Of a stretch of DNA of 64,000 nucleotides, positions 20,017 through 44,065 are shown piece by piece. Under the pieces are notes generated by a model, which was given only the letters and a program-made list of their open reading frames with translations, made no database searches and was not told the origin of the DNA. The number at the start of each line of letters is the position of its first letter. Within the stretch, counting starts at the first letter, position 1. This stretch comes from an uncultured Gemmatimonadota bacterium. Its GTDB lineage: Bacteria > JAAXHH01. The stretch lies in NCBI GenBank assembly GCA_951812955.1, contig OX638340.1, positions 1,856,001-1,920,000 of the forward strand, read 5' to 3'. Both the position numbers and the translations under genes were made by a program.

Positions 20017-22422
20017 ATGCTCCAAAACTACCTCACCATAGCCATTCGCAACCTGCTCAGGTATCCCGCCTACACGCTCATCAACATCGTGGGGCTCGCG
20101 ATCGGCCTGGCGGCCTGCATGCTGATCCTGCGCTACGTCTGGGACGAGATGAGCTACGATCGGTATCATCCACACGCAGATCGGGTTTACCGGGTAGTCG
20201 ATGACATAGAAAGCGCGGGGCAGACAGTCCAGACGGCGGGATCTCCTTTGGGGTGGGGGCCCGCTCTGAAGCGTGATTTTCCCGAAATCGAGCTTTTCGC
20301 CCGGGTGCGGGGCACGACATCCGTCTGGTTTATCATGCATGAAGAGAAACGTTACTATGAGAAAAAGGTCATCTGGGCGGATGCGGCTCTGCTCGACATG
20401 TTTTCCATCCCCTTTGTCGCCGGCAATCCCCGTACCGCGCTGACCGAACCGTATTCGATCGTGATCTCGGAGGATATGGCCTTCAAGTATTTCGGTGGCG
20501 AGGACCCCATGGGGAAAGTCCTCAGGGGGGACAATGTCTGGGATTTCACGGTGACCGGCGTCATGCGCAACATACCGGCCAATTCCCATCTGCGTCCTGA
20601 TATGATCATGTCCCTTGTGACACGGAATGCCATTTTTGCAAATGACCTCGATGAATGGGAGATGCACGAGAATCGTTATACTTACATCAGGCTGCATGAA
20701 AACGCCTCTCCGGATGCCCTGGAAGCTCAGCTGCCCGCCTTCGTGGAACGAAATAAAACCGGGCGGTTCCGTGATTCGAGCAAAGTGTTGAGACCGTCTC
20801 TGCAGCCCCTGGTGGACATTCACCTCCATTCGCACAGGGACAGCGAGCTCGAGCCCAACGGAGACATCCGCTACGTAACGCTCTTCATGATTATCGCCTT
20901 CCTGATTCCTATCATCGCCTGCATCAACTTCGTGAACCTGGCCACGGCACGATCGGCCATGCGCGCCAGGGAGGTGGGCGTACGCAAGGTTATGGGGGCC
21001 AATCGCCCGCAGCTACTGGGGCAGTTCCTGGGCGAAGCCGTCGTCATGGCGGGACTTGCCATGATCGTCGCGGTCGCGCTTGTACATCTAGCCCTGCCCG
21101 GCGTAAACGTGCTGGCCGGCAAGCAACTGGATTTTGCTCTTTCGGACGGCTGGGTGTTGGGAGCGCTGATCGCTGGAACCATCGTTATCGCAATGGCTGC
21201 CGGTAGCTATCCCGCAACCTACCTATCTGGTTTCCTGCCCACCGATGTACTGAAAGGGAATCTGAAGTCAGGAACGCAAGGCATGGGATTGCGGCGGACC
21301 CTGGTGGTGATCCAGTTCGTCATGTCCATCTTTCTGCTGGTCAGCACCGCCGTCATCTACGACCAGCTCGAGTACATCCAGGACATGAGGCTCGGTTTCA
21401 ATAAAGAGCATGTAATGGTGATCCCGATTACCGGCCAGGCTCAGCGCGAAAACACCCCGGTGCTGAGACAACGCGTCGCGCAGTTGCCCGGCGTGGTAGG
21501 GATAGCGACGACCGATGGCGTCCCGGGCGAACTCTCACCGCGGATTATGGCCGTCCGTTCCGATGAGATGAGCCCCGAGGACAACCTGATTGTGTCTGTG
21601 TTCTCCTCAGATGATCAGTTCCTGGAGGTCATGGAAATCGGCCTGGTGGCAGGCCGGAACTTTCAGGCCGAGTGGGGCAGGGATACAACCATGGTAGTCC
21701 TGCTGAACGAGACCGCTGCCCGTAAGCTGGGTTGGGATGCGCCGCCCGACGCAATAGGTATGCTTGTGGAATGGATCGAGTACCGCGGTACGAAGGGACG
21801 CGTCCGGGGTGTTGTGGAGGATTTTCATCTGCAATCGATTCATGAGGAAATCGAACCGATCGTATACATACACTATCCCATCGACTTCAGCGACATACTC
21901 ATCCGAATCAGGCCGGAAAACGTACCGGATACCATCACACGGATCCAGGAAGTGTGGCGGGAAGTCGAACCCCTGTATCCTCTGGCATATACGTTTCTCG
22001 ACGAAGATTTCGACAGCCTCTACCGTGCCGAACGCCAACTGGGTACGGTATTCGCGGTCTTCGCCTTTCTCGCGATCTTCGTGGCGTGCCTGGGCCTGCT
22101 TGGACTGGCTTCCTTCTCCATCCAGCAGCGGACCAGGGAGATTGGAATCCGCAAGGTACTCGGCGCTACCGTTTCGGACATCGTCCTGCTGCTCTCAAAG
22201 GATTTCATGAAGTATGTACTACTGGCCAATGTGATCGCCTGGCCCCTGGCATACCTTGCCATGGCACAATGGCTGCAGAACTATGCCTATGCGGCGGAAA
22301 TCAACTTTGCGTGGTTTATCGCGGGAGGCCTCGTTGCGGTCGCCATCGCCTGGCTTACGATCGGGGCGCACGCGCTGGCCGCCGCGGGCAGAAACCCGGT
22401 TAACGCACTAAGGCAGGGGTGA
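20017..22422 (+). CDS. ABC transporter permease, FtsX/MacB-like double-domain family (801 aa)
   Basis: N-terminus MLQNYLTIAIRNLLRYPAYTLINIVGLAIGLAACMLIL. Two FtsX modules. Close paralog of the 1..2142 product. Confidence 0.85.
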   Translation: MLQNYLTIAIRNLLRYPAYTLINIVGLAIGLAACMLILRYVWDEMSYDRYHPHADRVYRVVDDIESAGQTVQTAGSPLGWGPALKRDFPEIELFARVRGTTSVWFIMHEEKRYYEKKVIWADAALLDMFSIPFVAGNPRTALTEPYSIVISEDMAFKYFGGEDPMGKVLRGDNVWDFTVTGVMRNIPANSHLRPDMIMSLVTRNAIFANDLDEWEMHENRYTYIRLHENASPDALEAQLPAFVERNKTGRFRDSSKVLRPSLQPLVDIHLHSHRDSELEPNGDIRYVTLFMIIAFLIPIIACINFVNLATARSAMRAREVGVRKVMGANRPQLLGQFLGEAVVMAGLAMIVAVALVHLALPGVNVLAGKQLDFALSDGWVLGALIAGTIVIAMAAGSYPATYLSGFLPTDVLKGNLKSGTQGMGLRRTLVVIQFVMSIFLLVSTAVIYDQLEYIQDMRLGFNKEHVMVIPITGQAQRENTPVLRQRVAQLPGVVGIATTDGVPGELSPRIMAVRSDEMSPEDNLIVSVFSSDDQFLEVMEIGLVAGRNFQAEWGRDTTMVVLLNETAARKLGWDAPPDAIGMLVEWIEYRGTKGRVRGVVEDFHLQSIHEEIEPIVYIHYPIDFSDILIRIRPENVPDTITRIQEVWREVEPLYPLAYTFLDEDFDSLYRAERQLGTVFAVFAFLAIFVACLGLLGLASFSIQQRTREIGIRKVLGATVSDIVLLLSKDFMKYVLLANVIAWPLAYLAMAQWLQNYAYAAEINFAWFIAGGLVAVAIAWLTIGAHALAAAGRNPVNALRQG

Positions 22423-24826: not shown

Positions 24827-26245
24827 CTACTCCCTGATTCCACACGCCTCGTCCGTCAGCACGTCGTAGTGATGTATGTACTTGACGCCGTCGATCACGA
24901 GCCGATCGGTTTGTGGTAGATCCTCCTCCCACGTCATTTCGACTCCCTGCAAATGGGGTGGCTTCTCCCGCTTGCCCCAGTGATTGCCGTTGTAGCGCCG
25001 GAACAGCAGCGTGCGGCCAGCGCGGGTGACGTACGCCATGACCAACACCGCTCGTTCGGACGTATCTTCGTCGATATCGAAAACCCGCATGCATTCGAAT
25101 GTCCGATCGCCGATGCACACCGTGTAGAGGCCCTGTGAAAACACCAGCGGCGCATCCGATTTCTTAATGAACGTTCCATCCGGTTGTTCCGTCAGGTAAT
25201 CCCGGTCTTCGACCAGACGGGGCGTCATCCCGAAATCCCATCCAAAGTCCTCGTCCAGGCAGGTCAGAAGTTCCCTGGTTCCATCGGATTTCATGCTCTC
25301 GACGGCCAGCCAATGCACCTCCGTCTCTTCCAGGCGGCCCCAGACCCGGGTATGGCGATCCCTCGTTTCCGGATCATGGTTGAGCGTTAGGAGACCCTCC
25401 CGGTCTGGACGGCGTTGTTCATCCATCTCGATCTCTACGCATGGTCTTCCGTGTATGATGGCGCGCCGCGTTGCAACCATGTCCTTGACCTCGGTTAACT
25501 TCCAGGCCGAACCATCCCGCGTAGGCTCGTAATCCGCCCATCGGACCTGATCACCGATTTCGGGTACGATGAACCACCAGGACAGCTCCCGAAGATCTAT
25601 GGAAAATGGAGTTGCCGTACTTATCTCGATGGATATATCGGGCCGGTAATTGGGAAAGGGTACAGTCGTAGCTTTTGTGTCGTCGCTCATGGCCATGCTC
25701 CTTCTATTGGTGGTTACACCCAGTTCGATTCGAACCATGTCCCGTCCGTGAGACAGCCGCCGCTCGATGGTTCCCGGTGGGCAGCGATGACGGGCCGCAA
25801 TTTCCGCTATGCTCAATCCATCCAGGTAGAACGACCTCAGGGCCGCTTGTTCCTTATCGGGCACGTGATCGAAGGCTTCGACCACATCCTTCGCTGCCCG
25901 CCGTTGACGGGCCGTCGGCACACCGAATCGATTAATCATCGTTGCCAGTTCCTCGGAATCGACGAAGCGCTCTCGCCGTTGTGTAGAGCGCATGAAGTCG
26001 ACGCAGCGGTTGCGCGCAACCTGGTACAGCCAGGCGCGCACGTTTCTCGGTGATCGAACACGCAACCCCAACCAGGCATGAACGAGCGTCTCCTGTAGCA
26101 CGTCCTCTACCGCCTCCACCGACCCGATACGATCCCGGATCAATGCGGCCAGAGATCGCTCGTAGCGCCGGATCAGGGCCACGAAGGCCCGTTCGTCGCC
26201 GGTCCGGATCTGTTGAACAAGTACCTGGTCACTGAGGAACCCCAT
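24827..26245 (-). CDS. ECF-family RNA polymerase sigma factor with ~290-aa soluble C-terminal extension
   Basis: Sigma-70 region 2 (VQQIRTGDERAFVALIRRYERSL…LQETLVHAW) and region 4 (LRSFYLDGLSIAEIAARHRCPPGTIERRLSHGR) lie in the first ~180 aa. The remaining ~290 aa has no predicted TM helix and no recognisable domain. Confidence 0.75.
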   Translation of the reverse strand: MGFLSDQVLVQQIRTGDERAFVALIRRYERSLAALIRDRIGSVEAVEDVLQETLVHAWLGLRVRSPRNVRAWLYQVARNRCVDFMRSTQRRERFVDSEELATMINRFGVPTARQRRAAKDVVEAFDHVPDKEQAALRSFYLDGLSIAEIAARHRCPPGTIERRLSHGRDMVRIELGVTTNRRSMAMSDDTKATTVPFPNYRPDISIEISTATPFSIDLRELSWWFIVPEIGDQVRWADYEPTRDGSAWKLTEVKDMVATRRAIIHGRPCVEIEMDEQRRPDREGLLTLNHDPETRDRHTRVWGRLEETEVHWLAVESMKSDGTRELLTCLDEDFGWDFGMTPRLVEDRDYLTEQPDGTFIKKSDAPLVFSQGLYTVCIGDRTFECMRVFDIDEDTSERAVLVMAYVTRAGRTLLFRRYNGNHWGKREKPPHLQGVEMTWEEDLPQTDRLVIDGVKYIHHYDVLTDEACGIRE

Positions 26246-29156: not shown

Positions 29157-29972
29157 TTGGGTATCGGAAAGGAGCTTCATATGATCATCCACAAACTGGT
29201 CGCAGCCACTTGCATGATCGGTCTGGGAATGTACGGCTGTTCCTCTTCAGAGATTCCTGAGGACCCGCCGGTCCAGACCGAGCAGGTCGCATGGGGATAC
29301 GGTGACGAGAACGGACCGGACGTCTGGGGCCAGTTAAGCCCGGATTTCGCCTTATGTGCCGAGGGATCGCTGCAATCTCCGATCGACCTTGCGAATGCCA
29401 CGTCGTCGGAACTTCCCGAAATCGTCTTCAACTATAGTCCGTCGGCGGTGAATATCCACCATAACGGCCACACGATTGAAGTGGCGCCCACCGGGGAAAA
29501 CTCGATTGAGATCGATGGTGTACGTTACGCGCTTCTGCAGTTCCATTTCCACGCTCCGAGCGAGCACTCGGTGGACGGCCGGTTATTCGACATGGAAATG
29601 CACCTCGTGCACCGGAACGAAGAAGGCACCCTGGCAGTTATCGGAGTTCTGATCGAGCAGGGCGCCGACAATGCGACGTTCGGTCCCCTGTGGACGAATA
29701 TGCCGGACACGCCCGGCGTAACGAACAGCGTAGAGAACGCCACCGTTGATGCCGGCGACTTGCTGCCGGGCGACAGGCAGACCTATCGCTATGACGGCTC
29801 GTTGACTACACCGCCGTGTTCAGAAGGTGTCAAATGGAACGTGCTGACAACGCCCATTGAACTGTCCGAACCGCAGATCGCCGCTTTCAAAGCAGTTGTC
29901 CATGACAACAATCGGCCGGTACAGCCGCTGAATGAGCGTGAACTGCTTTCGGATGGTGCTGGAGAAGGCTAG
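29157..29972 (+). CDS. alpha-class carbonic anhydrase, secreted (possible lipoprotein)
   Basis: Signal peptide ending …GMYGCSSS. Alpha-CA hallmarks: WGY…GP..W, SPIDL, zinc-ligand histidines in QFHFHAPSEH and HLVH. Confidence 0.85.
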   Translation: MGIGKELHMIIHKLVAATCMIGLGMYGCSSSEIPEDPPVQTEQVAWGYGDENGPDVWGQLSPDFALCAEGSLQSPIDLANATSSELPEIVFNYSPSAVNIHHNGHTIEVAPTGENSIEIDGVRYALLQFHFHAPSEHSVDGRLFDMEMHLVHRNEEGTLAVIGVLIEQGADNATFGPLWTNMPDTPGVTNSVENATVDAGDLLPGDRQTYRYDGSLTTPPCSEGVKWNVLTTPIELSEPQIAAFKAVVHDNNRPVQPLNERELLSDGAGEG

Positions 29973-30110: not shown

Positions 30111-31415
30111 TCAGCCCCGCCCCGCCAGCGGAATCCCGTACCGCTGCAGCGTGGTAATGAGCGTCGGGCGACCGAGGCGGATCCGGCCGTCGTTCAGCAG
30201 GTAGGAAAACAGATAGCCCGCACCGAGCATGATAATCCCTATGAGGAAACAGTACATGACTGCGCGATCGGGATAGACGTCTTTCAGGTACCCCACGTAC
30301 AGCGGACCGAAGATCCCCGCGGCGGCCCACGCGGTCAGCACCGCGCCGTAGATGGTGGACATCTTCTTCGTGCCGAACACGTCGAGGACGAAGGAAGGCA
30401 TGGTGGCGAAACCGCCGCCGAAGCAGAGCAGCACGTAGCAGACCAGCGCGGAGAAGACCCAGGGGTTCGTCTCGGTCATGAGTATGCCGAAGACTACCAT
30501 CTGGCTGCCGAGCAACACCCTGAAAACCGTAACCCTTCCGAACCGGTCGGACAGCAGTCCCCAGAACAGCCGCCCCAGTCCGTTGCAGATCGAGCTGACC
30601 GCGATGAGGGTAGCCCCGTACTCGGCCAGCATGGTGGGTTCGATTGAATCATCCGCCAGGCCCCAGATCTCCTGCAGAATTTCCGACTGGAAGCTGACGA
30701 CAGATATCCCGGCCGCAATGTTGAAGAAAAATACGATCCACATGAAGACGAACTGCGTCGTACCCAGGTAGGCGCGGGCGTACTTCGGTTCGTCGGCCTC
30801 ATCGGGATCGGTCGCGGTAGTCGACGGACCCGTGGGATCCGGCGGCGGGTCGGTCAGCGCCAGGCTGCAGGGGATGAGAATCAGGGCAAAGATGATACCG
30901 AGCCAGAAGAAGACTTCTGGCAATGCGCCCGCGGTCCGGACGATGAGGAAGGGCGCAAGGCCCTTGCTAAGCAGGAACGCCCCCACGCCGAATCCCATGA
31001 CGACGATCCCGGTAGCCAGGCCCTTGCGATCCGGAAACCACTTGGCCACGGTGGCGACCGGCGTGACGTACCCCAGCCCGATGCCCGCGCCGCCAATCAC
31101 TCCGTAGCCGAGATAGAACAACGGGATACTGTTCATCTCAAGTGCCAGGCCCGAGACCAGGTAACCGCACGCGAACAGGAAGCTGCCTATAAGGGCGAGT
31201 TTGCGCGGTCCCATCTTCGGCAGCATATTCCCGGCCCAGGCTGCCGATACGCCGAGGGTAAAGATGGCGATGCTGAAGGCCCAGGCCGTCTCGGTGTGGG
31301 TCCAACCGATCTGGCGCACCAGTATCGTCTGGAAGAAACTCCAGGCGTATACCGTGCCGAAGCAGACCTGCAGCGCCGTGCAGAAGAGCGCGATGGCGCT
31401 TCGGGGAATGCGCAT
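30111..31415 (-). CDS. MFS transporter, oxalate/formate-antiporter (OFA)-like family
   Basis: N-terminus MRIPRSAIALFCTALQVCFGTVYAWSFF is typical of OFA-family MFS. About 12 TM helices. The ATG at 31415 avoids overlap with the upstream gene; the longest ORF extends to 31463. Confidence 0.75.
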   Translation of the reverse strand: MRIPRSAIALFCTALQVCFGTVYAWSFFQTILVRQIGWTHTETAWAFSIAIFTLGVSAAWAGNMLPKMGPRKLALIGSFLFACGYLVSGLALEMNSIPLFYLGYGVIGGAGIGLGYVTPVATVAKWFPDRKGLATGIVVMGFGVGAFLLSKGLAPFLIVRTAGALPEVFFWLGIIFALILIPCSLALTDPPPDPTGPSTTATDPDEADEPKYARAYLGTTQFVFMWIVFFFNIAAGISVVSFQSEILQEIWGLADDSIEPTMLAEYGATLIAVSSICNGLGRLFWGLLSDRFGRVTVFRVLLGSQMVVFGILMTETNPWVFSALVCYVLLCFGGGFATMPSFVLDVFGTKKMSTIYGAVLTAWAAAGIFGPLYVGYLKDVYPDRAVMYCFLIGIIMLGAGYLFSYLLNDGRIRLGRPTLITTLQRYGIPLAGRG

Positions 31416-31428
31416 CGCTTTTATCCTC

Positions 31429-32169
31429 CTACCGTGCCTTCTCCGGCGGCGCGCCGGGCGCACTGGAGTCGGGCGACTGATCGGAGATGTGGCGGAAGAG
31501 ACGGGCCAGATCGCCTACTTCGTCGTCCCGTCCAAGGAGATCGTCCGCCGAGGCTTCCGTTTCCTTGTTGCCCGCGATATTGACGGCGTAGGCGAGTAGC
31601 TCCGCGAGGGGTTTTGCTGCGAGATTGACGAGCCAGATCGAAGCAAGAACGCCCACGACGAGGAATATGCAAATGAGGATTACCTGCTGGCCGATGGCGC
31701 GCTGGATCTTGAGGGCGACCTCATCCTGGTCCATGCCTACGTGCACCGTGCCCGCCACGCCCGCCAGGATGGGACTGCCGACCTCCAGGAAATCACCCAG
31801 GCCGGGGATGCTTCGCTCCACGGGCTCGAGATTCGAATGATCGCTCGCGAGAATCTGCTCGGGTATGCCGGGCACGAAGGTATGGGCGAGATACTCGCCG
31901 TCCTCACTGGTGATGTAGATGTACCGGATACCCTGAATTTCTACGAACTGATCGATCATCGATTGCAGCGTCGCCAGGTTTCGGTTGAGCAGGATGTCGA
32001 CGCTGGCGTCAGCAACGCTCTTGGCGATGTTCTGACTGTTAGACTCGTATTCCGCCGTCAGTTGTGTATCTACGGTGTATATGCACAGGGCCGAGGTGGA
32101 GAGGACGATGACGCCGAAGAGCAGAAAGATCCCGAAACGGGTGCGCTGGAACAGTTTTTGTATTTTCAT
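31429..32169 (-). CDS. membrane protein with periplasmic Cache-like domain and cytoplasmic HAMP domain, no output domain
   Basis: Layout is TM1 (res ~13-35), a ~125-aa periplasmic segment with a Cache-like YIYITSEDGEYLAH motif, TM2, then a HAMP consensus (KPLAELLAYAVNIAGNKETE…DEVGDLARLFRHISD). The protein ends ~15 aa after HAMP. Confidence 0.6.
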   Translation of the reverse strand: MKIQKLFQRTRFGIFLLFGVIVLSTSALCIYTVDTQLTAEYESNSQNIAKSVADASVDILLNRNLATLQSMIDQFVEIQGIRYIYITSEDGEYLAHTFVPGIPEQILASDHSNLEPVERSIPGLGDFLEVGSPILAGVAGTVHVGMDQDEVALKIQRAIGQQVILICIFLVVGVLASIWLVNLAAKPLAELLAYAVNIAGNKETEASADDLLGRDDEVGDLARLFRHISDQSPDSSAPGAPPEKAR

Positions 32170-32170
32170 G

Positions 32171-33550
32171 TCAGGAAAGCCAGCTTTGCCAGTCGTCCAG
32201 AGTAACGAACCGGCCCTCTTCTACGACGGTATAGTAGACGGTTTGCAGCCCCTGCCGGCGGTCAGGACCGAAGGAGACCCGCTCGCTGATCCCGAGATCG
32301 TAGTTTTCGACCGAGAACACCGCATCCTCCAACCCGTCCCTTTCTGGATTTCCTCCCAGGCGCCGCAGGATCTCGGTCATCAGCTTGGCGTCCAGAAAAC
32401 CCTCGAGACTGACGAAACTCTGCGGAAACGGGCTGTATGCCTCCTTGACGAGTTCCTCGGGAACTGCGGGATCATAGCGTTCCATCAGTTCGCGATATTC
32501 CTGCACTGCGGGAATGGACGTGTCCTCGTAGCTCGGGACCACCTGGGAGTTGACGAGATAACGTGAGTAGGTCTCCACGTCCTCTCCCAGATCGCCGAGC
32601 AATTGGAGCATGTTCTCGCTTCCCACGAATGAAAGGTTGGCGATGGGAACCCGCAGGTCGCGGTCGACGGCGTCGCGTGCGAAGGCCGCGCAGGCCGCGT
32701 ACGACCCGATGCAGATGACGGCGTCCGGAGAATTCGCCTTGAGGATTTCCACCTGTTCCCGCATGCTGCCCGTGAATCGCTGGCCCCTGCGGTAGGTCGC
32801 TTCGCCCGCGAGTCGTTCGCCGTGCCTGTCGAGTGCCGCCCGTACCCCGGCCCAGCCGCTTCTGCCGTAGGCATCCGCCTGGTAGAATACGCCGATTTTC
32901 CTTTTGCCCGCGGCGAGGAAATTGTTCACGAGTCCGGCTGTCTCCTGCCGGTAGGAAGCCCGGAGGTTGAAGGCGAAATCACCATACGGCGGTTCCCGCT
33001 GGGGCTGGGCGCCGGTGAAAGGGAAGAAAAGGTAGACCTGCTCATCCTGGAACTTCTTCAGAAGAGGAAGCACGCGCGTTACGGTCGGCGTGCCCACGTA
33101 CCCGAAGAGCAGGAACACGTTGTCCTCGAGCATGAGATTCATGGTGTTCCGTACACAGGGATCCGGCTGGTACCCGTCGTCGTATAGCTTCAGGGTGATC
33201 TTGCGACCCGCTACACCTCCGTTGTCGTTGACGTAGTTGAAATACGCCATCGCCCCGCGGTACAACTCGCTTCCAAGGCCCCTGGAAGGACCCGAAAAGG
33301 CGGCCGACATGCCCAGGACGATTTCATCGTCCGTGGCGCCTTCAAAGCCGGTTTCGATTTCCTGTGCTGAGACCATGTTCGCTCCTCCCAGTACGGTATC
33401 GGCGCCCCTCCAGCCCGCGCCGGAAACCGCCAACAATCCCGCGAGGCCTCGGCGCAGCATGGTCCTTCGCGTTAACAACGGCAAAGGAGACTCGGGTTTT
33501 TTCCCGGATTGACCGTTACCGTCACGCACATTCATACGTTTCCTCGTCAT
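32171..33550 (-). CDS. periplasmic solute-binding protein, PBP type 1 (Leu/Ile/Val-, amide/urea-binding family), Tat signal
   Basis: Twin-arginine motif TRRTMLRRGLAGLLAVSGAGW. Mature domain begins IVLGMSAAFSGPSRGLGSELYRGAMAYFNYVNDNGGVAGRKITLKLYDDGYQP, typical of LivK/AmiC-like PBP1 proteins. Confidence 0.75.
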   Translation of the reverse strand: MTRKRMNVRDGNGQSGKKPESPLPLLTRRTMLRRGLAGLLAVSGAGWRGADTVLGGANMVSAQEIETGFEGATDDEIVLGMSAAFSGPSRGLGSELYRGAMAYFNYVNDNGGVAGRKITLKLYDDGYQPDPCVRNTMNLMLEDNVFLLFGYVGTPTVTRVLPLLKKFQDEQVYLFFPFTGAQPQREPPYGDFAFNLRASYRQETAGLVNNFLAAGKRKIGVFYQADAYGRSGWAGVRAALDRHGERLAGEATYRRGQRFTGSMREQVEILKANSPDAVICIGSYAACAAFARDAVDRDLRVPIANLSFVGSENMLQLLGDLGEDVETYSRYLVNSQVVPSYEDTSIPAVQEYRELMERYDPAVPEELVKEAYSPFPQSFVSLEGFLDAKLMTEILRRLGGNPERDGLEDAVFSVENYDLGISERVSFGPDRRQGLQTVYYTVVEEGRFVTLDDWQSWLS

Positions 33551-33834
33551 CTCATGAGCCGCAAATAGTCTGCCAACCGTAAATTACGGCAGTCTGTCAG
33601 CCACGACCTGGCTGAAATGTTGACTAAACCGGAAACCGCTGAATTGAAGTCTGATATTCGAAATGTAGTGATTGTTACCGCGTCAGATGCAGTTGTGTTG
33701 AATCAAAATGATAAAACCGGAACAACTTCGTTGCAAGGTATTTTTGTGTCCTTGCTCAAGGTCCCGCGGGACTTTGAGCCGCTTCAATATCGAATAGGAT
33801 ACGCAATATCTTCTTTGAAATTCAACCGGCGAAA

Positions 33835-35178
33835 TCAATCCTCTGCAGGGCCGTATCCGCTGTAAGGTTCCGGAAGACCCTTACTCGCCACATCTTCCAT
33901 CACATCGCAGAAGTAATCCAGCTCGGGCAACGTAGTGTACAGATTCGACGAGATACGGACCCACCGCCGGCTGGAGTCCGTCCTGTCGTAACGGCCCCGG
34001 GACGTCTGGATCTGATGTTCATCCCATAGATAGTCTCGCATCCCGGTCGGATCAACCCCATCAATCCCGACCCCGGCAATACAGCAACTCATTTCAGGGG
34101 CCGTCGGCGTGTATACTTGAATCCTCGGATGCGTCTGAAGCCGTTCCGCCCAGTGGTTCTTCAGATACCGGAGCCGTTCTTCCTTGCGTTTCGATCCAAT
34201 GGCGTTGTGGAAGGCGAGGGCTTCGCCGATGGCAAGAAACGGCGCATGGGACAGGGTTCCGACGGACTCGTATTTCAGCATGCTTGTTCTGGGGTTGTAA
34301 CGGCGGCTCCTGGCCGGACCGTACAACGGCTCTATCTTCTCAACGTGATCGCGTTTCATGTAAAGCATCCCGGTCCCTTTCGGCGCGCTGAGCCACTTGT
34401 GCAGACTCGTACCGTAATAATCGCAACCCAGTTCCGAGACCTTGAAGTCTAGTTGGCCGACCGCATGGGCGCCGTCCACGACGACTTCGATACCGTACCG
34501 GTGCGCCAGGTCGCAGATACGCCGGACCGGGAACACCTGTCCGGTGGTATAGGTGATGTGGGACACGAGGATCAATCGCGTCTTCGGTGTGATGGCGCGC
34601 TCGAAGATCCCCACCAGGTCGTCCAGCGACTGTGCGGGCAGCGGCACCGGCGCCTGAACCAGCTTGATCCCCTCCTGCTTTTCCCGGTTCCTCAAGGCGC
34701 TCACCATGGAAGAGTAATCATGCGTCGTGGTAAGTACCTCGTCTCCCGGGTTCAGGGGAATGCCGTACAGGACCGTCTTGAGCGCCTCGGTCGTATTGCG
34801 TACGAGGGCGATTTCATCGGGACTGCTCCCGAAGAGGCGCGCCAGGGACCTCTTCACGGTACTCTCCTGGTCTCTGGCCTTTTGAACGTACAGGCCGTAC
34901 GGTCCCTGTTCCTGTTCCCATATGTACCGCACAACCGCTTCCGTGACGACGCGGGGCGACGGGCAGGTATAGCCGTTGTCCAGGTTGATCAGGCTTCGGT
35001 TCACGGTAAAGGCCTGCTTGACTTCGCTCCAGAGCCCTTCGTCACGGGCGGCCTGCTGCGGCGTCAGGTCCGAGATTTCGCTTACCGCCGCCTCGACTCC
35101 CCGGAACGAAGCGGGACCGAGGAACGTTGCCAGCCCTGCGGTCATGCCGGCGGTTTTCAGGAAGTGACGCCGTTCCAT
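33835..35178 (-). CDS. class V aminotransferase-fold PLP enzyme (isopenicillin-N-epimerase/cysteine-desulfurase-like) with Tat signal peptide
   Basis: Strong Tat motif MERRHFLKTAGMTAGLATFLGPASFRGVEA. PLP-lysine context GTSLHKWLSAPKG. The longest ORF extends to 35289 (an extra 37 N-terminal aa), but the Tat motif favours the 35178 start. Confidence 0.7.
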   Translation of the reverse strand: MERRHFLKTAGMTAGLATFLGPASFRGVEAAVSEISDLTPQQAARDEGLWSEVKQAFTVNRSLINLDNGYTCPSPRVVTEAVVRYIWEQEQGPYGLYVQKARDQESTVKRSLARLFGSSPDEIALVRNTTEALKTVLYGIPLNPGDEVLTTTHDYSSMVSALRNREKQEGIKLVQAPVPLPAQSLDDLVGIFERAITPKTRLILVSHITYTTGQVFPVRRICDLAHRYGIEVVVDGAHAVGQLDFKVSELGCDYYGTSLHKWLSAPKGTGMLYMKRDHVEKIEPLYGPARSRRYNPRTSMLKYESVGTLSHAPFLAIGEALAFHNAIGSKRKEERLRYLKNHWAERLQTHPRIQVYTPTAPEMSCCIAGVGIDGVDPTGMRDYLWDEHQIQTSRGRYDRTDSSRRWVRISSNLYTTLPELDYFCDVMEDVASKGLPEPYSGYGPAED

Positions 35179-35570
35179 GGCATTCGGGCGTTCCACGGGA
35201 CGGTCGTTTTCTTCGAGACGGTCGTTTTCTTCGTTTTGCGGTCTCATCGTGCTTCTCCTTTTCCGGGCCGTTTCTGCCATCCCGGTCATCCAATGAGGTA
35301 TTCAGCGAAATGAGTGCTACTGACTCAATGAAAAGTGTCCTTGACTCGCATCCTACTGTTTTTAAACTGATGACATCGGACCCGCTCGACGGATAGAAGA
35401 ACCGGGAAACCCGCTTCCCCTTACCTTTTTACACCGTGACCCCATATAAACTTGTGAAAAACATGGCTTCAAGCGCAGCATCCCGTCAGGTCAACGTTTA
35501 CACCGATTTCATTAACGACGAATCGAAGTGATCTGCCCGTCCAGATGTTAACCAGGAAAGAGAATCATCC

Positions 35571-38877: not shown

Positions 38878-39735
38878 TCAGGTCATCTTCCATTTCGTGT
38901 CGGGAATATCGCCGTGCTGGACGCGCCGCTCCAGTATGGGCGTCTGACGCAACTCGCGAATCAGTTCGATCAGGCCGTTGATGGCGGCCTCCAGGAACTT
39001 TTCTCCCTTCTCTTTCGTCGCTTTGGTGGCATCCCCCATGACCCCGCTGGGCGATATCGAACTCCAGTAGGGCACCATGCGGGCGTCGGATCCCTCGGGA
39101 TGCCCGCTGGCCAGGAGATCGGTCTTAAAACTGTTTGGCAGGGGACTCCTGTTGTCCACAGCCTTGTCCATTTCAACCAGATCGGGCTTGAGGGCAAGGT
39201 ATAGAGACGTCTCGTATTCCCCTCCATGAGACGTGCCGCCATAGTCCGAGTCGCGTAACGCCTTGCCCACCTCCCTTGCCTGCCTCAGTCCCCAGTGGTT
39301 GGCGCTGGCGCACAGTATCTTCCCTTCGAAATCGATGACGGTAAGGCGGGCGGCCAGGTCGAGGGGCGAGGTGTTGCTTCCGTGGCCGTTGATGATCAGG
39401 ATGCGCTTGAAGCCGTGATAGGCCAAACTGCTGCACACGTCCCGGACGTAGTTGATGAAGGTGTCCCACCGAATGGTGATCGTCCCGTGGAAATCCATGT
39501 GATGGGGACTGTAACCGTGGGTCACCGGAGGGGCGAGCACGACCTCCTCCGGTATGCGTGCCGCGGCCCGCCGGCAGATCTCCGTCGCCAGGACCACGTC
39601 CACGTCCACGGGCAGATGGGGACCGTGGTCCTCGTAGGTCGCCACCGGGAGGAGTGCGACCCGGTCCTGGGCGGCCGCGTCCCTTATCTCGTTCCAGATC
39701 ATCTCCGAGTAGTCGTACTTGACCGACGCCATCAA
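38878..39735 (-). CDS. creatininase-family amidohydrolase
   Basis: Creatininase-family hallmarks: LLPVATYEDHGPHLPVDVD, HGYSPHHMDFHGTIT, ILIINGHGSN. It lies 80 nt downstream of hutF on the same strand. Confidence 0.75.
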   Translation of the reverse strand: MMASVKYDYSEMIWNEIRDAAAQDRVALLPVATYEDHGPHLPVDVDVVLATEICRRAAARIPEEVVLAPPVTHGYSPHHMDFHGTITIRWDTFINYVRDVCSSLAYHGFKRILIINGHGSNTSPLDLAARLTVIDFEGKILCASANHWGLRQAREVGKALRDSDYGGTSHGGEYETSLYLALKPDLVEMDKAVDNRSPLPNSFKTDLLASGHPEGSDARMVPYWSSISPSGVMGDATKATKEKGEKFLEAAINGLIELIRELRQTPILERRVQHGDIPDTKWKMT

Positions 39736-39815
39736 GGCCTCCTTTTCACTGGTTCTTTCACCTTTACGGGTTCAGGTTATACTACCGTTACGCTTGCTTG
39801 TACATGCTTTTCATA

Positions 39816-41063
39816 TCAGATCAACTCCATGTATTTCAGCGACTTGCGGTATAGATCCAACGTCTCGTCGTATTGGGCGTGACGACCCTCGGCAACGATC
39901 TGTTTTCCCGCGACCGAGACGGATCTCACCGCCCGCGGCGTGGCGCCGAAGAGGATGGCGTCAGGAGCGTGATCGGGATCCATGGCAGCAATGGATGGAT
40001 CGTCGGGATCCAGGTGGACATGATCATCCCGCCAGGATTCATCCAGACCGCAGGCCGCGTATCCCAGTCTCGTAGCCGCGTCAAGCAGCACCTGCGCCTC
40101 AGCCACTGTATGCCGCTTCTCCAGCCGTGACCGCTCGTCCAGCTCCACGGCCCGGATTTCCTCGAAGGCGTTCTCGCATGAGTGGCTGTCCACGCCCACG
40201 CAGAGGTGGGTTCCGGCCCTGAGCAGCTCGGCCGCGGGCGGGAGCCCATCGCCGAGATCTCTTTCCGTGGTACGACAGATGCACACCATGCACTTGTAGT
40301 CTCCCAGCGCTTCGATTTCACCTTCATCGAGATGCGTGGCGTGCACGGCCACGAACCGCGGGGACAAGACACCTTCATTGGTAAGTAACGCGACGGGCGT
40401 GGTCCCGTATTCAGACCTGCATGCTGCAAGCTCGGCCCGTTGTTCGCAGACGTGCATGTGGTATGGAAGTTCATGTTCTTCGGCGTAGGCCGACAGAATG
40501 CGGATATCGGGGAGGGGCACGGCCCGAATGCTGTGGGCGGCCACGGCCACGGAGACGTCGGAATCATCCGCGTAGCGCGATCTCAGCACATCGAGATCCC
40601 TTAACACGTCATCGATCGACGGGTCGATGAACCGTTTCTGCGCCGGTACCGCGGACCGCCGGTAACCTGCTCTCAGGTAGGCGGTACGGATCAGGCAGAT
40701 ACGCAGGCCGACATCCCTGGCAGCACGCACGACTGCATCCGCCAGTTCGGTGCGGTCTGCATAGGGACGCCCCCCGGGACCATGATGCACGTAATGGAAC
40801 TCACCGACGGCCGTAACCCCGGACATCGCAAGTTCGGTATAGGCGAACCGCGCGATCGCGTACAGGTCATCCGGTCGGAGCCTTTCGACCAACCGGTACA
40901 TCTCGTCCCGCCAGCCCCAGAACGTGCCCGCGCGGGTCGCGCGGCGCTGGGTCCGCCCACGAAGCGCACGCTGGAAAGCGTGGGAATGGGCCGTAGCGAG
41001 ACCGGGCATGACCCAGTGGCCTTCTTCGTATTGAACGGAAGGCAGGTTATTCCCGGAATTCAT
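39816..41063 (-). CDS. hutF: formimidoylglutamate deiminase
   Basis: Amidohydrolase-superfamily member with the HutF-typical N-terminal block PGLATAHSHAFQRALRG. ATGA overlap with hutI. Confidence 0.75.
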   Translation of the reverse strand: MNSGNNLPSVQYEEGHWVMPGLATAHSHAFQRALRGRTQRRATRAGTFWGWRDEMYRLVERLRPDDLYAIARFAYTELAMSGVTAVGEFHYVHHGPGGRPYADRTELADAVVRAARDVGLRICLIRTAYLRAGYRRSAVPAQKRFIDPSIDDVLRDLDVLRSRYADDSDVSVAVAAHSIRAVPLPDIRILSAYAEEHELPYHMHVCEQRAELAACRSEYGTTPVALLTNEGVLSPRFVAVHATHLDEGEIEALGDYKCMVCICRTTERDLGDGLPPAAELLRAGTHLCVGVDSHSCENAFEEIRAVELDERSRLEKRHTVAEAQVLLDAATRLGYAACGLDESWRDDHVHLDPDDPSIAAMDPDHAPDAILFGATPRAVRSVSVAGKQIVAEGRHAQYDETLDLYRKSLKYMELI

Positions 41064-42343
41064 GGGTTCAACACCTGCCCGTTCTTGATCACGGTATGCA
41101 CCGGGTTTCCGCCAAAGAAATAGGGTATGTGGCGGTAATCGGCCTCGTTCAGAATCAGTATATCGGCCCGCTTGCCGACTTCAATGGAACCGGTCCGGTC
41201 CCCCTGGCCGATGGCGAAAGCCGCGTTGATGGTGGATGCGTTCAGCGCTTCCGCGGGGGTGAACCGCTGGTACCTGCAGGCTATGGCCATGACCGTGGGC
41301 ATGGATGGACAGGGTGCCGAACCGGGATTGAGGTCGGTGGCGAGGGCTACGACGGCGCCGGCTTCCATCATTGCCCGCCCATCGGCGTAATCTGCCATAC
41401 CTAGGTTGAAGTTCACCGCCGGTAGCAGGACGGCGATCGTGTCCGAGCGGGCCAGCGATTCGATCGCCTCCCGGCCCGTCACATCGAGGTGGTCCACCGA
41501 GGCGGCGCCGAGTTCCATGGCCATGGCGACTCCGCCGAAATCGTTGAACTGGTCCACGTGCATCTTCGCTTTCAAACCGGCATCAATCCCGGCCTCCAGC
41601 ACCCGCCGGGACTGGGCGAGATCGAATGCGTGGTCTTCGCAGAACACGTCGACGTGCAAGGGAACTTCGCGATCCGAGAAGCGCGAGGACTGGTACCAGG
41701 CCGCCGCTTCCGGCAGGATCTTCTCGATCACGCACCGTGTATACGCTTCGGAATCTCCCTCGAATTCCGGTGGCACCGCGTGAGCGCCCAAAAAAGTGGG
41801 CACGATGTCGCAGGGATGGTCCCGGTCTAGCTGTTCGATGACACGCAGCATCTTCAGTTCGTCGGGAGCGCTCAGACCGTAACCGGTCTTGATCTCCACG
41901 GTCGTTGTGCCCAGTGCGAGCATCTCGTCGAGACGGGTGGAAGCGGACGATACGAGTTCGTCCACGGTTGCGGCCCGCGTGTACCGGACCGTATTCACAA
42001 TTCCCCCGCCTGCAGCCATGATCTCCAGGTAGGAAGCCCCCTTGATCCGCATCTCGAATTCCGCGGCGCGGGCTCCGCCGAAGACCGTGTGGGTGTGGGC
42101 GTCTACGAAACCGGGACAGAGGGATCTCCCACGGCAATCTATCGTGCGCTTGCCCGCGTACCTGCCATCCAGGTCCTCGGCCGGTCCGACCGCCGCGATC
42201 ACCCCGGCCTCTACCGCCACCGACCCGTGCTCGATCATGTGCACCGAGGCCATGTCCGAACCGCGCCGAGGTGTCCCGGGCGACCGTGGCGTGCAGGTCA
42301 CGACCTGATCCGCGTTGTGGAGGTAAAGATCGACGGGTTTCAT
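41060..42343 (-). CDS. hutI: imidazolonepropionase
   Basis: PGFVDAHTHTVFGGARAAEFEMRIKGASYLEI is a near-consensus HutI metal-binding N-terminus. Length 427 aa. Confidence 0.85.
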   Translation of the reverse strand: MKPVDLYLHNADQVVTCTPRSPGTPRRGSDMASVHMIEHGSVAVEAGVIAAVGPAEDLDGRYAGKRTIDCRGRSLCPGFVDAHTHTVFGGARAAEFEMRIKGASYLEIMAAGGGIVNTVRYTRAATVDELVSSASTRLDEMLALGTTTVEIKTGYGLSAPDELKMLRVIEQLDRDHPCDIVPTFLGAHAVPPEFEGDSEAYTRCVIEKILPEAAAWYQSSRFSDREVPLHVDVFCEDHAFDLAQSRRVLEAGIDAGLKAKMHVDQFNDFGGVAMAMELGAASVDHLDVTGREAIESLARSDTIAVLLPAVNFNLGMADYADGRAMMEAGAVVALATDLNPGSAPCPSMPTVMAIACRYQRFTPAEALNASTINAAFAIGQGDRTGSIEVGKRADILILNEADYRHIPYFFGGNPVHTVIKNGQVLNP

Positions 42344-42459
42344 ATGCCCGCTCGATGAAAGATGGGTGGTCTTGTCGGTCTCGGAGGTTTCATTGCGGCG
42401 CCGGCGTTAAAATGTCAAAAGAAAGGGCCCGAAGCTCGTTGCCCAACTTGCGGTACGTC

Positions 42460-44049
42460 TCAGTCCAGCGTCGGACCCGGAATCTCCAACTTCTCCCCGA
42501 CCGCACCGACCACGTCCCCCCGTGCGACCAGACCACGCATGATTTCGATCAGCGGCGCAAGCGGTACGTCGCGGTCCAGGAAGGGCACGTGCCGGCGGAT
42601 CATTCGGTACGCCGCGCCGGTCCCCCGTCCCATTCCATCCGGCGTGACGCCCGGTTCCCGGCACCTGAAATCGATGGCCTGTGCCGCGTCAATCAGTTCT
42701 ATGGCAACGATGGTCTCTACGTTTTCCAGGACCTGTTGCGTATGATGCACCGACGCCGCACCCATGCTCACGTGATCTTCCGTATTCGCGCCGCTCGGTA
42801 TCGAGTCCGCGCTGGCCGGGTGGGCCAGCACCTTGTTCTCCGACGCAAGGGCCGCCGCCGTGTACTGGGTGAGCATCAACCCGCTTTCCAGTCCGCCATG
42901 GTCCGTGAGGAACATGGGCAGGATGCCGCCGTTGGAGTCGGCGTCTACGAGCCGGGCCGTACGCCGCTCGCTCATGTTGCCCATGTCTACGATCGACAGC
43001 TTCATGCTGTCCATCGCCACGGCGATGGGTTCGCCGTGGAAGTTGCCCGCGCTGATGATCTCCGTGTCTTCGGGATCATCCCCGGCGAAGACCAGGGGAT
43101 TGTCGTTCGCGGAGTTCAGCTCGATGTTGATCATCCAGCGGGCGTAATCGATCGTGTCCCGGACCGCTCCGTGCACCTGGGGGACGCAGCGCAACGTGTA
43201 GGGATCCTGTACGTTGCCGGGATCGTCGGAACGGAGCAAACGGCTGCCGTGCAGCATGTCCCTCAGGAAGGCCGCGCAGGCGACCTGCCTGGGATGGGGA
43301 CGGATGGCGTGCACGCGGGCGTCGTACGCACGGTCGGTGCCGATCAGCGCTTCCAGGGTCATGGCGGCCGCGATGTCCGCCGTAAGCGCGAGATTTGTGG
43401 CCCGGTGTACCAGCAGGGCGCCGAGTCCCGCCATGAGGGTCGTGCCGTTTGTGAGGGCCAACCCCTCCTTCGCCCCCAGGATAACCGGTTCAAGCCCCGC
43501 CTTCCGGAGGGCCGTTGCGCCGTCGAGACGGCGGGAACGGTACATGGCCTCACCTTCTCCGATCAGCACCAGGGACATGTGCGCCAGGGTCGCCAGGTCT
43601 CCACTTGCGCCAAGGGAACCCCGGCCGGGGATGCAGGGGTGCACGCCCTCGTTGAGCATGTCCACCATCAGCTGGACGACTTCGGGCCGGATGCCCGAAT
43701 AGCCCATGGCGAGCGTATTGGCCCGGACGATCAGCATGGCGCGTACGGTCTCCTCGTCCAGTTCGGGCCCTGCACCGGCCGCGTGGCTTCTTATCAGATT
43801 GAGTTGCAATTCGGCGACCTGTTCGGAAGAGATCAGCTTGTCCTTGAATCGGCCGAAACCGGTGGTGATCCCGTAGGCGATCCGGCCCTCCGAGACCAAT
43901 CGATCCACCACTTCCCGGGAGCGTTTCATGCCGGGGAGGGCATCGGGGTGTATTGCGACGGGGCGGCCCTTCGAGACGGCGACCACCTCGTCGATGGTGA
44001 GATTGTAACCCGTGAGAGGCAGGACATCCTGGGAACGATCCATATCCAA
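42460..44049 (-). CDS. hutH: histidine ammonia-lyase
   Basis: MIO-forming Ala-Ser-Gly triad in the GSLGASGDLA context. Aromatic amino-acid lyase family architecture. Length 529 aa. Confidence 0.9.
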   Translation of the reverse strand: MDMDRSQDVLPLTGYNLTIDEVVAVSKGRPVAIHPDALPGMKRSREVVDRLVSEGRIAYGITTGFGRFKDKLISSEQVAELQLNLIRSHAAGAGPELDEETVRAMLIVRANTLAMGYSGIRPEVVQLMVDMLNEGVHPCIPGRGSLGASGDLATLAHMSLVLIGEGEAMYRSRRLDGATALRKAGLEPVILGAKEGLALTNGTTLMAGLGALLVHRATNLALTADIAAAMTLEALIGTDRAYDARVHAIRPHPRQVACAAFLRDMLHGSRLLRSDDPGNVQDPYTLRCVPQVHGAVRDTIDYARWMINIELNSANDNPLVFAGDDPEDTEIISAGNFHGEPIAVAMDSMKLSIVDMGNMSERRTARLVDADSNGGILPMFLTDHGGLESGLMLTQYTAAALASENKVLAHPASADSIPSGANTEDHVSMGAASVHHTQQVLENVETIVAIELIDAAQAIDFRCREPGVTPDGMGRGTGAAYRMIRRHVPFLDRDVPLAPLIEIMRGLVARGDVVGAVGEKLEIPGPTLD

Positions 44050-44065
44050 CCGATTCCTTCCGGGT

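Follow-up and report, generated by a model that had tools for sequence, protein, structure and literature searches.

We analysed a 64,000-nucleotide (nt) stretch of DNA from an uncultured Gemmatimonadota bacterium (contig OX638340.1, positions 1,856,001 to 1,920,000; assembly GCA_951812955.1), hereafter the window, to whose coordinates positions refer unless another locus is named. Between positions 30,111 and 33,550 it carries three consecutive genes, the triad, which encode a predicted periplasmic solute-binding protein (SBP), a short membrane protein with a Cache and a predicted HAMP domain but no output domain (the stub), and a carrier of the major facilitator superfamily (MFS). Their main features are the following (aa, amino acids; TM, transmembrane helix; AF2, AlphaFold2):

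32171..33550, minus strand: SBP gene, 459 aa, Peripla_BP_6 family (LIV-type, periplasmic binding protein (PBP) type I; Pfam PF13458, E = 2e-38).
33431..33475, minus strand: twin-arginine (Tat-type) signal motif LTRRTMLRRGLAGLL, SBP aa 26-40; a linker of 15-30 aa precedes the folded core.
31429..32169, minus strand: Cache-HAMP stub gene, 246 aa, membrane protein without output.
32074..32142, minus strand: stub TM1, aa 10-32, a hydrophobic helix in the AF2 secondary structure.
31699..32070, minus strand: periplasmic sCache_3_2 domain of the stub, aa 34-157, with motifs AHTFVPGIP and ILAGVAGTVHVGMD (Pfam PF17203).
31618..31689, minus strand: stub TM2, aa 161-184, part of helix 149-200 in the model.
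31480..31635, minus strand: predicted HAMP domain of the stub, aa 179-230, with amphipathic segment AS1, connector and amphipathic segment AS2 (DDEVGDLARLF), followed by a tail and the stop.
31425..31431, minus strand: stop codon TAG of the stub, as read from the sequence; it shares bases with an AGGAGG ribosome-binding site located 9 nt from the MFS ATG.
30111..31415, minus strand: MFS carrier gene, 434 aa, 12 TM, SfMCT/SLC16-like branch of the OFA family.
30609..30695, minus strand: TM7-TM8 loop of the carrier, aa 241-269, motif SFQSxxLQxxW, conserved and ~10 aa longer than in SfMCT.
30570..30584, minus strand: TM8 motif N278-G-L-G-R282 of the carrier, a putative carboxylate-binding Asn/Arg pair aligned with SfMCT N276/R280 and OxlT R272.

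A preliminary description of this DNA had presented the three genes as tightly coupled, and both junctions are confirmed when read from the minus strand. The SBP stop codon (TGA, 32173-32171) is followed by a single base and then by the ATG of the stub gene at 32169. The stop codon of the stub (TAG, 31431-31429) lies 13 nt from the MFS ATG at 31415, and the Shine-Dalgarno sequence AGGAGG of the MFS gene occupies 31430-31425. The same description had reported no ATP-binding cassette (ABC) genes near the SBP gene. This holds for the LIV type, of which neither permease nor ATPase genes were found among the large window open reading frames (ORFs) scanned; the same scan revealed no histidine kinase. 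Permeases of another type, MacB/FtsX, do occur in the window (25-2142, 2701-5106, 20017-22422 and 52925-57511), one of them 1528 aa long and matching also the Peptidase_M28 domain.

The first protein is, as proposed earlier, a PBP type I SBP of LIV-type fold, with 4kv7 and 3lop as its closest solved structures. Its export by the Tat pathway is predicted from the twin-arginine motif located before a hydrophobic stretch (Tat consensus TRRTMLRRGLAGLL; motif TRRTMLRRG). Since a homolog 97% identical to the SBP has 454 aa, the real start may be Met6, at 33535. In the AF2 model (predicted local distance difference test score, pLDDT, of 72) residues 1-71 are disordered, and its structural neighbours are LIV-family proteins binding amino acids, 2-oxo acids, aromatic acids, fatty acid, pyroglutamate or urea. 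Alignment with E. coli LivJ, whose sequence we verified against PDB 1z15, showed that the equivalents of Tyr150 and Glu226 are conserved and that Thr/Tyr residues adjoin the positions of Ser79, Thr102 and Tyr202, LivJ residues assigned to the pocket in the structural literature on this protein. An amino-acid-like carboxylate is thus suggested as SBP ligand, which we regard as a lead and not as a result.

The stub matched the sCache_3_2 family with 49.3 bits (cut-off 28.4; E = 7e-13). Its HAMP region scored 15-18 bits against the Pfam PF00672 cut-off of 25, covering positions 1-49 of the 53 in that model; long relatives of the stub (see below) pass this cut-off in the homologous region, with 36-42 bits. 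Residues P189, L190, D215, G218 and L220 of the HAMP domain are near-invariant, with the Pro-Leu of AS1 and the D-E-V-G-x-L-A-R-L of AS2 both kept. In its secondary structure, the AF2 model shows one TM helix, then a single Cache domain (a long helix and a five-stranded sheet), a second TM helix and the HAMP domain, with helices at 185-200 and 217-230. Profile scans with Pfam and NCBIfam detected no domain other than sCache_3_2 and the sub-threshold HAMP. The protein ends 14-16 aa after AS2 in a tail that is not conserved, in agreement with the earlier observation that it stops about 15 aa past the HAMP domain, without kinase, methyl-accepting chemotaxis protein (MCP) or cyclase.

The third protein is an MFS carrier (MFS_1, E = 3e-35) that the preliminary description had called OFA-type. 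Its assignment to the OFA family can be kept, as a member of the SfMCT/SLC16-like branch, but it is not best called an oxalate:formate antiporter. It exceeds the cut-off of the NCBIfam model for the SfMCT L-lactate transporter (NF049980, 334 bits against 320), whereas it remains below that of the OFA family (194 bits) and those of the OFA subfamily models TIGR00890 and TIGR04259. Its matches in PDB include SfMCT (6g9x, E = 2e-35), OxlT (8hpj, E = 4e-24) and entries of MCT1. The N278/R282 motif of TM8, shared with SfMCT, is conserved among the MFS proteins of triads. By contrast, the position of OxlT Lys355, which binds the second carboxylate, is occupied by Trp, making a monocarboxylate the likely substrate. 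Taken together, the pocket of the SBP and the TM8 arginine of the carrier point to an amino-acid-like or other small carboxylate. In addition to the absence of this Lys, the carrier differs from SfMCT and OxlT by a semi-conserved C-terminal tail of ~30 aa and by a TM7-TM8 loop longer than that of SfMCT. Under the usual N-in topology of MFS proteins this loop would be periplasmic and might offer a docking surface. To our knowledge, SfMCT and OxlT work alone, with neither a binding protein nor a Cache-HAMP partner.

Conserved synteny, raised in the preliminary description as a check of its proposal, was found. A scan of genomes (one per species) returned 74 loci, of which 71 contained enough sequence to be informative. 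In all 71 the three genes follow one another as SBP, stub and MFS on a single strand, with protein identities that co-vary between 63 and 95%. This arrangement is far beyond chance, and we can safely discard a fortuitous juxtaposition of the three genes. The junction between SBP and stub genes (in nearly all loci an overlap or a gap of 1-4 nt) is the most conserved, and the gap between stub and MFS genes measures 11-15 nt in most close loci. The possibility that the stub is a pseudogene left by the truncation of a sensor kinase, compatible with its homology to the N-terminus of long kinases, can be rejected with near certainty. Among 812 stub matches in a protein search, the best 120 are 70-93% identical to it and measure 235-261 aa; the stop codon is conserved, ~245 codons from the start in the informative loci; and the next gene is always an intact MFS gene with its own start codon (plus, in the window, its own ribosome-binding site), with no kinase remnant downstream.

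When the flanking ORFs were clustered, SBP, stub and MFS were the only genes common across lineages, and the flanks varied. The hosts are metagenome-assembled genomes (MAGs) labelled Latescibacterota, Gemmatimonadota, Acidobacteriota, Binatia, Alpha- and Gammaproteobacteria, Poriferihabitaceae and others (labels taken from the records, some of them possibly inconsistent), and many bear isolate names from sponge or coral metagenome studies. When loci of different phylum label are paired, the identities of all three proteins lie at 73-95%. The same phyla, and frequent lateral transfer, have been reported for sponge microbiomes (PMC8163846), and our observations fit a lateral spread of the three genes as one unit. 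Because the flanks differ while the identity across phyla is so high, this unit appears to move whole, without a linked host regulator. The 63-95% identity found in sponge and coral MAGs of many phyla suggests the laterally shared uptake of a host-derived or community metabolite. The triad is not restricted to this clade. Short proteins of 238-380 aa, 37-50% identical to the stub, also exist, and five of them were found in the same gene arrangement: P0126, P0152, P0125 and P0130 by look-up (Peripla_BP_6, stub, MFS) and P0136 by gene layout alone. Three distant triads (L077, L078 and L081) show 4-nt overlaps at both junctions. Since such distant stubs sit in the same triad, it is much older and more widespread than the sponge clade.

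No neighbour gene is common to all lineages, and the hints on the substrate given by the context, such as aminotransferases and a thiamine cluster, vary between lineages. A class-III aminotransferase gene lies upstream of the triad in Binatia, Poriferihabitaceae and Arenicellales loci, and an amidohydrolase gene downstream in Binatia-type loci. One triad with a 50%-identical stub (L082, 1450-10813) is located inside a thiamine biosynthesis cluster, all on one strand: three genes precede it (PfkB/Phos_pyr_kin and two TMP-TENI, read as ThiD/ThiE) and four follow it (ThiC, DAO, ThiS and ThiG, read as ThiC/ThiO/ThiS/ThiG). No thiamine pyrophosphate (TPP) riboswitch was detected in that cluster. 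A complete MAG chromosome (OZ241920.1; loci L005 and L033) carries two copies of the triad ~78 kb apart, with stubs 93% and 81% identical to that of the window. In a Rhodospirillaceae MAG (L072, 6001-6306), stub residues 1-47 abut MFS residues 376-434 without an SBP match, which looks like a deletion remnant of a triad. Three proteins of unusual length were rejected as natural fusions, which would have demonstrated a physical coupling: P0265, with 638 aa, reads as a garbled read-through of two genes, and P0129 and P0124 resemble frameshifted or misassembled sequences.

The origin of the stub became apparent from its more distant relatives. An HMMER search of 1.8 billion representatives yielded 1591 of them, including long proteins whose N-terminal module is 35-46% identical to stub residues 1-230 and whose outputs are histidine kinases, hybrid kinases, chemoreceptors or SpoIIE phosphatases. 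Residues H96, T97, F98, P100 and P103 are invariant across the stubs and these long sensors. Of four long relatives that we looked up, three (an MCP, a kinase and a SpoIIE phosphatase) have a Peripla_BP_6 gene of 408-412 aa directly upstream, with a 4-nt overlap. A metagenome scan using as query an alignment of four long-sensor modules provided 80 loci, 77 of them with room upstream, and in 76 of these 77 the end of an orthologous SBP gene coincides with the sensor start or lies no more than ~25 nt from it. The SBPs encoded next to the three long relatives are 56-61% identical to the window SBP, as close to it as those of distant triads or closer, and every SBP with >40% identity in the 1.7 Mb of DNA from the loci examined adjoins a Cache module. 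None of the metagenome sensor loci has an MFS gene downstream, and their neighbour genes were uninformative on the substrate. As the SBP gene precedes sensors of the MCP, kinase and SpoIIE phosphatase types, and does so in nearly all loci, SBP plus sCache_3_2-HAMP constitutes a general sensor cassette, predicted to depend on the binding protein, with interchangeable outputs. This widespread cassette seems to be uncharacterised in the literature that we found. Its ligand is probably shared with the triad. The pocket pattern equivalent to that of LivJ is the same in the SBPs of both. A search of plasmids retrieved the distant chemoreceptor cassette of Deinococcus alone: plasmid pDAETH-1 of Deinococcus aetherius (L170, record 198210-204982) encodes CheY, CheW, SBP and MCP, followed by a large response-regulator/CheA-like gene. 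This SBP is 49% identical to the window SBP and the chemoreceptor 25% in the Cache module. D. aetherius is thus a cultured carrier of the cassette and a possible route to the SBP ligand.

On the basis of these homologies, the window triad is the sensor cassette minus its output, with a separate MFS carrier encoded in the place of that output. The SBPs of the two arrangements differ in their signals: a twin-arginine motif was found in 68 of 72 triad SBPs (genes of L001-L071) and in 5 of 69 sensor-cassette SBPs (genes of L083-L166), the latter having short Sec-type signals. In known SBP-stimulated receptors (LuxP-LuxQ, BasB-BasT, TorT-TorS, ChvE-VirA), as in the triad, where co-transcription is predicted, the SBP gene adjoins and is co-transcribed with that of a receptor with a Cache/PAS-type periplasmic domain (PMC8050422); moreover, BasB is, like the window SBP, a Peripla_BP_6 protein. 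The full-length proteins related to the stub, which have a kinase, MCP or phosphatase as output, are typical representatives of this group. However, SBP-stimulated receptors carry a transmitter or output, whereas the window stub has none and its only conserved downstream partner is a separate MFS carrier. MFS and other secondary transporters are not mentioned as outputs in a review of these receptors (PMC8050422). One of two readings offered by the preliminary description, in which the SBP is a sensing partner and the stub acts on the carrier, thus gains independent support from the presence of the same SBP family upstream of full-length kinases, chemoreceptors and phosphatases, although the function itself is deduced. 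We conservatively class the triad as a putative SBP-dependent Cache-HAMP receptor whose output is a separate transporter.

Membrane sensors functionally coupled to a transporter are known from co-sensing pairs (DcuS with DctA/DcuB, UhpC-UhpB, BceAB-BceS and LysP-CadC), among which DcuS is also of the sCache_3_2 type. In these pairs the sensor has its own kinase or DNA-binding output, modulated by the transporter, whereas the stub is devoid of one, and a linked kinase gene was not found. Since the sensor of the triad lacks an output, information could flow only to the transporter or within the complex. The triad also recurs alone in MAGs of many phyla without a linked regulator, which makes it most likely self-sufficient and, therefore, dedicated to transport rather than to transcriptional signalling.

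We favour, with a probability of roughly 40%, the explanation that the triad is a self-contained and laterally mobile 'receptor-operated carrier', for which we infer contacts, direction, gating and substrate from the sequences. In the periplasm, the Tat-exported LIV-type SBP would catch a small, probably amino-acid-like carboxylate, and the loaded SBP would dock on the periplasmic sCache domain of the stub, as proposed for the related sensor cassettes. Docking of SBPs on Cache-type sensor domains is known from LuxP-LuxQ and BasB-BasT (PMC8050422). With the output domain lost, the Cache-HAMP dimer would sit against the SfMCT/SLC16-like carrier, and the TM helices and HAMP domain of the stub would relay SBP occupancy to it, such that the carrier would run only with ligand outside. 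A reversible proton-coupled carrier might acquire in this way, without consuming ATP, the high affinity and unidirectional action of a binding-protein system. We prefer this explanation because the conserved partner of the SBP is a Cache-HAMP module and because the full HAMP domain is retained. The conservation of the stub would also fit lateral contacts in the membrane: mean pairwise identities of TM1, TM2 and Cache are 0.65, 0.60 and 0.68 in stubs and 0.39, 0.32 and 0.51 in long sensors, so that the drop in conservation from the Cache domain to the TM helices is smaller in stubs.

Several observations weigh against this explanation. The TM contrast is only suggestive because the sets of stubs and long sensors differ in divergence (mean identity of 0.61 and 0.45, respectively). 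The relative conservation of AS1 in the HAMP domain is lower for stubs than for long sensors, a relaxation that weakens the argument for signalling. The AF2 model of the stub has a low confidence (pLDDT 59); consequently, its Foldseek matches to the sensor parts of WalK, CitA, DcuS and LuxQ are soft, and the model was used for secondary structure. No natural stub-MFS or SBP-stub fusion was found among the stub relatives, and we are not aware of any transporter on which a HAMP domain acts. The association of SBP and Cache-HAMP module is not universal either, as the hybrid-kinase long relative (L075) has no adjoining SBP gene. Finally, stubs may have other partners, since a 286-aa Cache-HAMP variant that ends in a short coiled coil (L168, 1156-2345), with an orthologous SBP gene upstream, precedes a gene for a MinD/ParA-like P-loop ATPase in place of the MFS gene. 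This locus may be another split-output version of the cassette.

The last variant, with a possible non-transport partner, leads to an alternative in which the SBP and the stub would sense the ligand and signal to an unlinked partner (kinase, cyclase or full-length paralog), the MFS protein being a co-sensor (as DctA/DcuB for DcuS) or simply a co-expressed carrier. The module is indeed homologous to real sensors, its sCache_3_2 domain is of the type found in DcuS and CitA, and kinases of this type use transporters as co-sensors. We nevertheless consider this alternative quite improbable: the surroundings of the triads have no conserved kinase or response regulator, none was found among the window ORFs scanned, the tail after the HAMP domain is short and not conserved, and the recurrence of the three genes alone across many phyla is hard to square with a host-specific partner.

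Another alternative keeps the transport function but dispenses with signalling, and corresponds to the second reading of the preliminary description, that of a system similar in composition to transporters of the tripartite ATP-independent periplasmic (TRAP) type. The SBP would dock directly on the periplasmic face of the MFS carrier and release its ligand into the outward-open cavity, while the stub would be a scaffold like DctQ or TctB, with HAMP as a dimerisation or stability element. TRAP, tripartite tricarboxylate transporter (TTT) and TAXI-GltS systems resemble the triad in combining a binding protein, a small membrane protein and a large carrier with translational coupling and no ATPase, and in the logic, proposed here for the triad, of high-affinity uptake driven by ion gradients. 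There is no homology, the triad SBP being a Peripla_BP_6 protein and not DctP, TAXI or TctC, and the small subunit of TRAP and TTT is a four-TM DctQ/TctB protein whereas that of the triad is a two-TM Cache-HAMP protein. In terms of the TRAP family (TCDB 2.A.56), the triad has no DctP/TAXI SBP, DctQ or DctM, its membrane proteins being sCache_3_2-HAMP and MFS_1; likewise, Pfam and NCBIfam scans gave no TctA, TctB or TctC matches among the triad proteins. The statement of the preliminary description that TRAP and TTT are the only SBP-dependent secondary transporters has become outdated, as TAXI-GltS was proposed in 2025 as a new class on genomic evidence, the association of binding proteins with elevator-type carriers being an emerging theme (PMC12344293).

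Direct hand-off shares the synteny and gene coupling with our preferred explanation. It is also favoured by the Tat signal and 15-30 aa linker that set triad SBPs apart from sensor-cassette SBPs and by the long, conserved TM7-TM8 loop of triad carriers, and the conserved TM helices and relaxed AS1 of the stub are those expected of a membrane scaffold. Furthermore, TAXI-GltS was accepted on reasoning of this style (PMC12344293). However, TRAP and the proposed TAXI-GltS transporters are of the elevator type (PMC12344293), while the triad carrier is a rocker-switch MFS protein. The ancestry of the SBP and Cache-HAMP module lies in signalling and not in transport, the full HAMP domain with its conserved AS2 would be needless for a passive scaffold, and no fusions were found. 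We judge this hand-off less probable than our preferred explanation, but a plausible rival to it.

A looser association can also be envisaged, with the stub as an ancillary or chaperone subunit of the carrier, or as a decoy titrating the SBP, and with the SBP mainly serving an ABC importer encoded elsewhere. Mammalian SLC16 carriers need single-pass ancillary proteins. Basigin and embigin offer such an analogy, as small membrane proteins with an extracytoplasmic domain paired with SLC16-type monocarboxylate transporters (MCTs), but they are not homologous to the stub (Ig domains and one TM against Cache, two TMs and HAMP) and the mammalian system includes no binding protein. For its part, the SBP family is annotated in public sources as ABC transporter substrate-binding protein, and a Peripla_BP_6 SBP is shared with the LIV-I ABC importer (LivJ-HMGF). 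However, the LivH/LivM and LivG/LivF genes are absent among the conserved neighbours of triads and cassettes and among the scanned window ORFs, a result that concerns these loci and not whole genomes, and the flanks of ~160 loci (~6 kb on each side of the triads, plus the window) revealed no LIV-type ABC genes. In addition, the linkage of every close SBP to a Cache module and the translational coupling of SBP and stub, the best conserved junction, speak for a specific partnership. We give little credence to this alternative.

Full-text searches, and papers on SBP sensors and SBP-dependent transporters, gave no description of a system composed of SBP, Cache-HAMP and MFS, and the triad seems to link a binding protein to a secondary transporter in a manner not yet described. 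That an MFS carrier of the rocker-switch type serves here for the first time in a binding-protein-dependent transporter, with a third subunit derived from a signalling receptor and a Cache-HAMP dimer coupling SBP docking to alternating access by hand-off or gating, is a tentative and still doubtful proposal. If either hand-off or gating were true, the triad would represent a new class of transport system. Being based on an MFS protein, it would depart from the emerging rule that limits binding proteins to ABC importers and a few elevator-type secondary carriers (TRAP, TTT and, since 2025, TAXI-GltS), and a HAMP domain would be seen to drive a transporter rather than an enzyme. The triad provides a cloneable system to ask whether rocker-switch carriers can be SBP-dependent and whether HAMP domains can control a transporter.

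The search for regulatory signals was less informative. A scan for promoters and terminators in the triad region gave no signal exceeding chance, and no Rfam match to a riboswitch or leader RNA was found 5' of the triad in the window and 11 related loci. A terminator-like hairpin on the minus strand (30228-30216) lies within the 3' end of the MFS gene, with 2 hairpins found against 3.6 expected by chance. The promoter candidate is the following:

33708..33736, minus strand: weak sigma-70-like promoter match, the sole one in the 284-nt spacer 5' of the SBP gene (1 found against 1.3 expected by chance).

The gene directly 5' of the SBP gene (33835-35289, minus strand) encodes a class-V pyridoxal phosphate (PLP) enzyme related to the periplasmic pyoverdine-tailoring enzyme PvdN, with its own twin-arginine signal (RRHFLKTAGMTAGLA); its place next to the triad is conserved only in Latescibacterota-type loci, and is shared by the window. 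On the other side, a plus-strand gene convergent with the MFS gene (29157-29972) codes for a eukaryotic-type alpha-carbonic anhydrase with a signal peptide, a layout found in 12 loci. Mammalian MCTs work with carbonic anhydrases. Further downstream, a minus-strand gene (24827-26245) encodes a 472-aa protein whose first 175 aa form an extracytoplasmic function (ECF)-type sigma factor domain, followed by a large C-terminal extension without family match. A histidine-utilisation block (38878-45715, minus strand) is located ~5 kb upstream of the triad and comprises genes for histidine ammonia-lyase (42460-44049), urocanase (44066-45715), two HutI/HutF-type amidohydrolases (41060-42343 and 39816-41063) and a creatininase-family protein (38878-39735). 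Plus-strand methyltransferase, GNAT and PhyH genes lie between this block and the triad.

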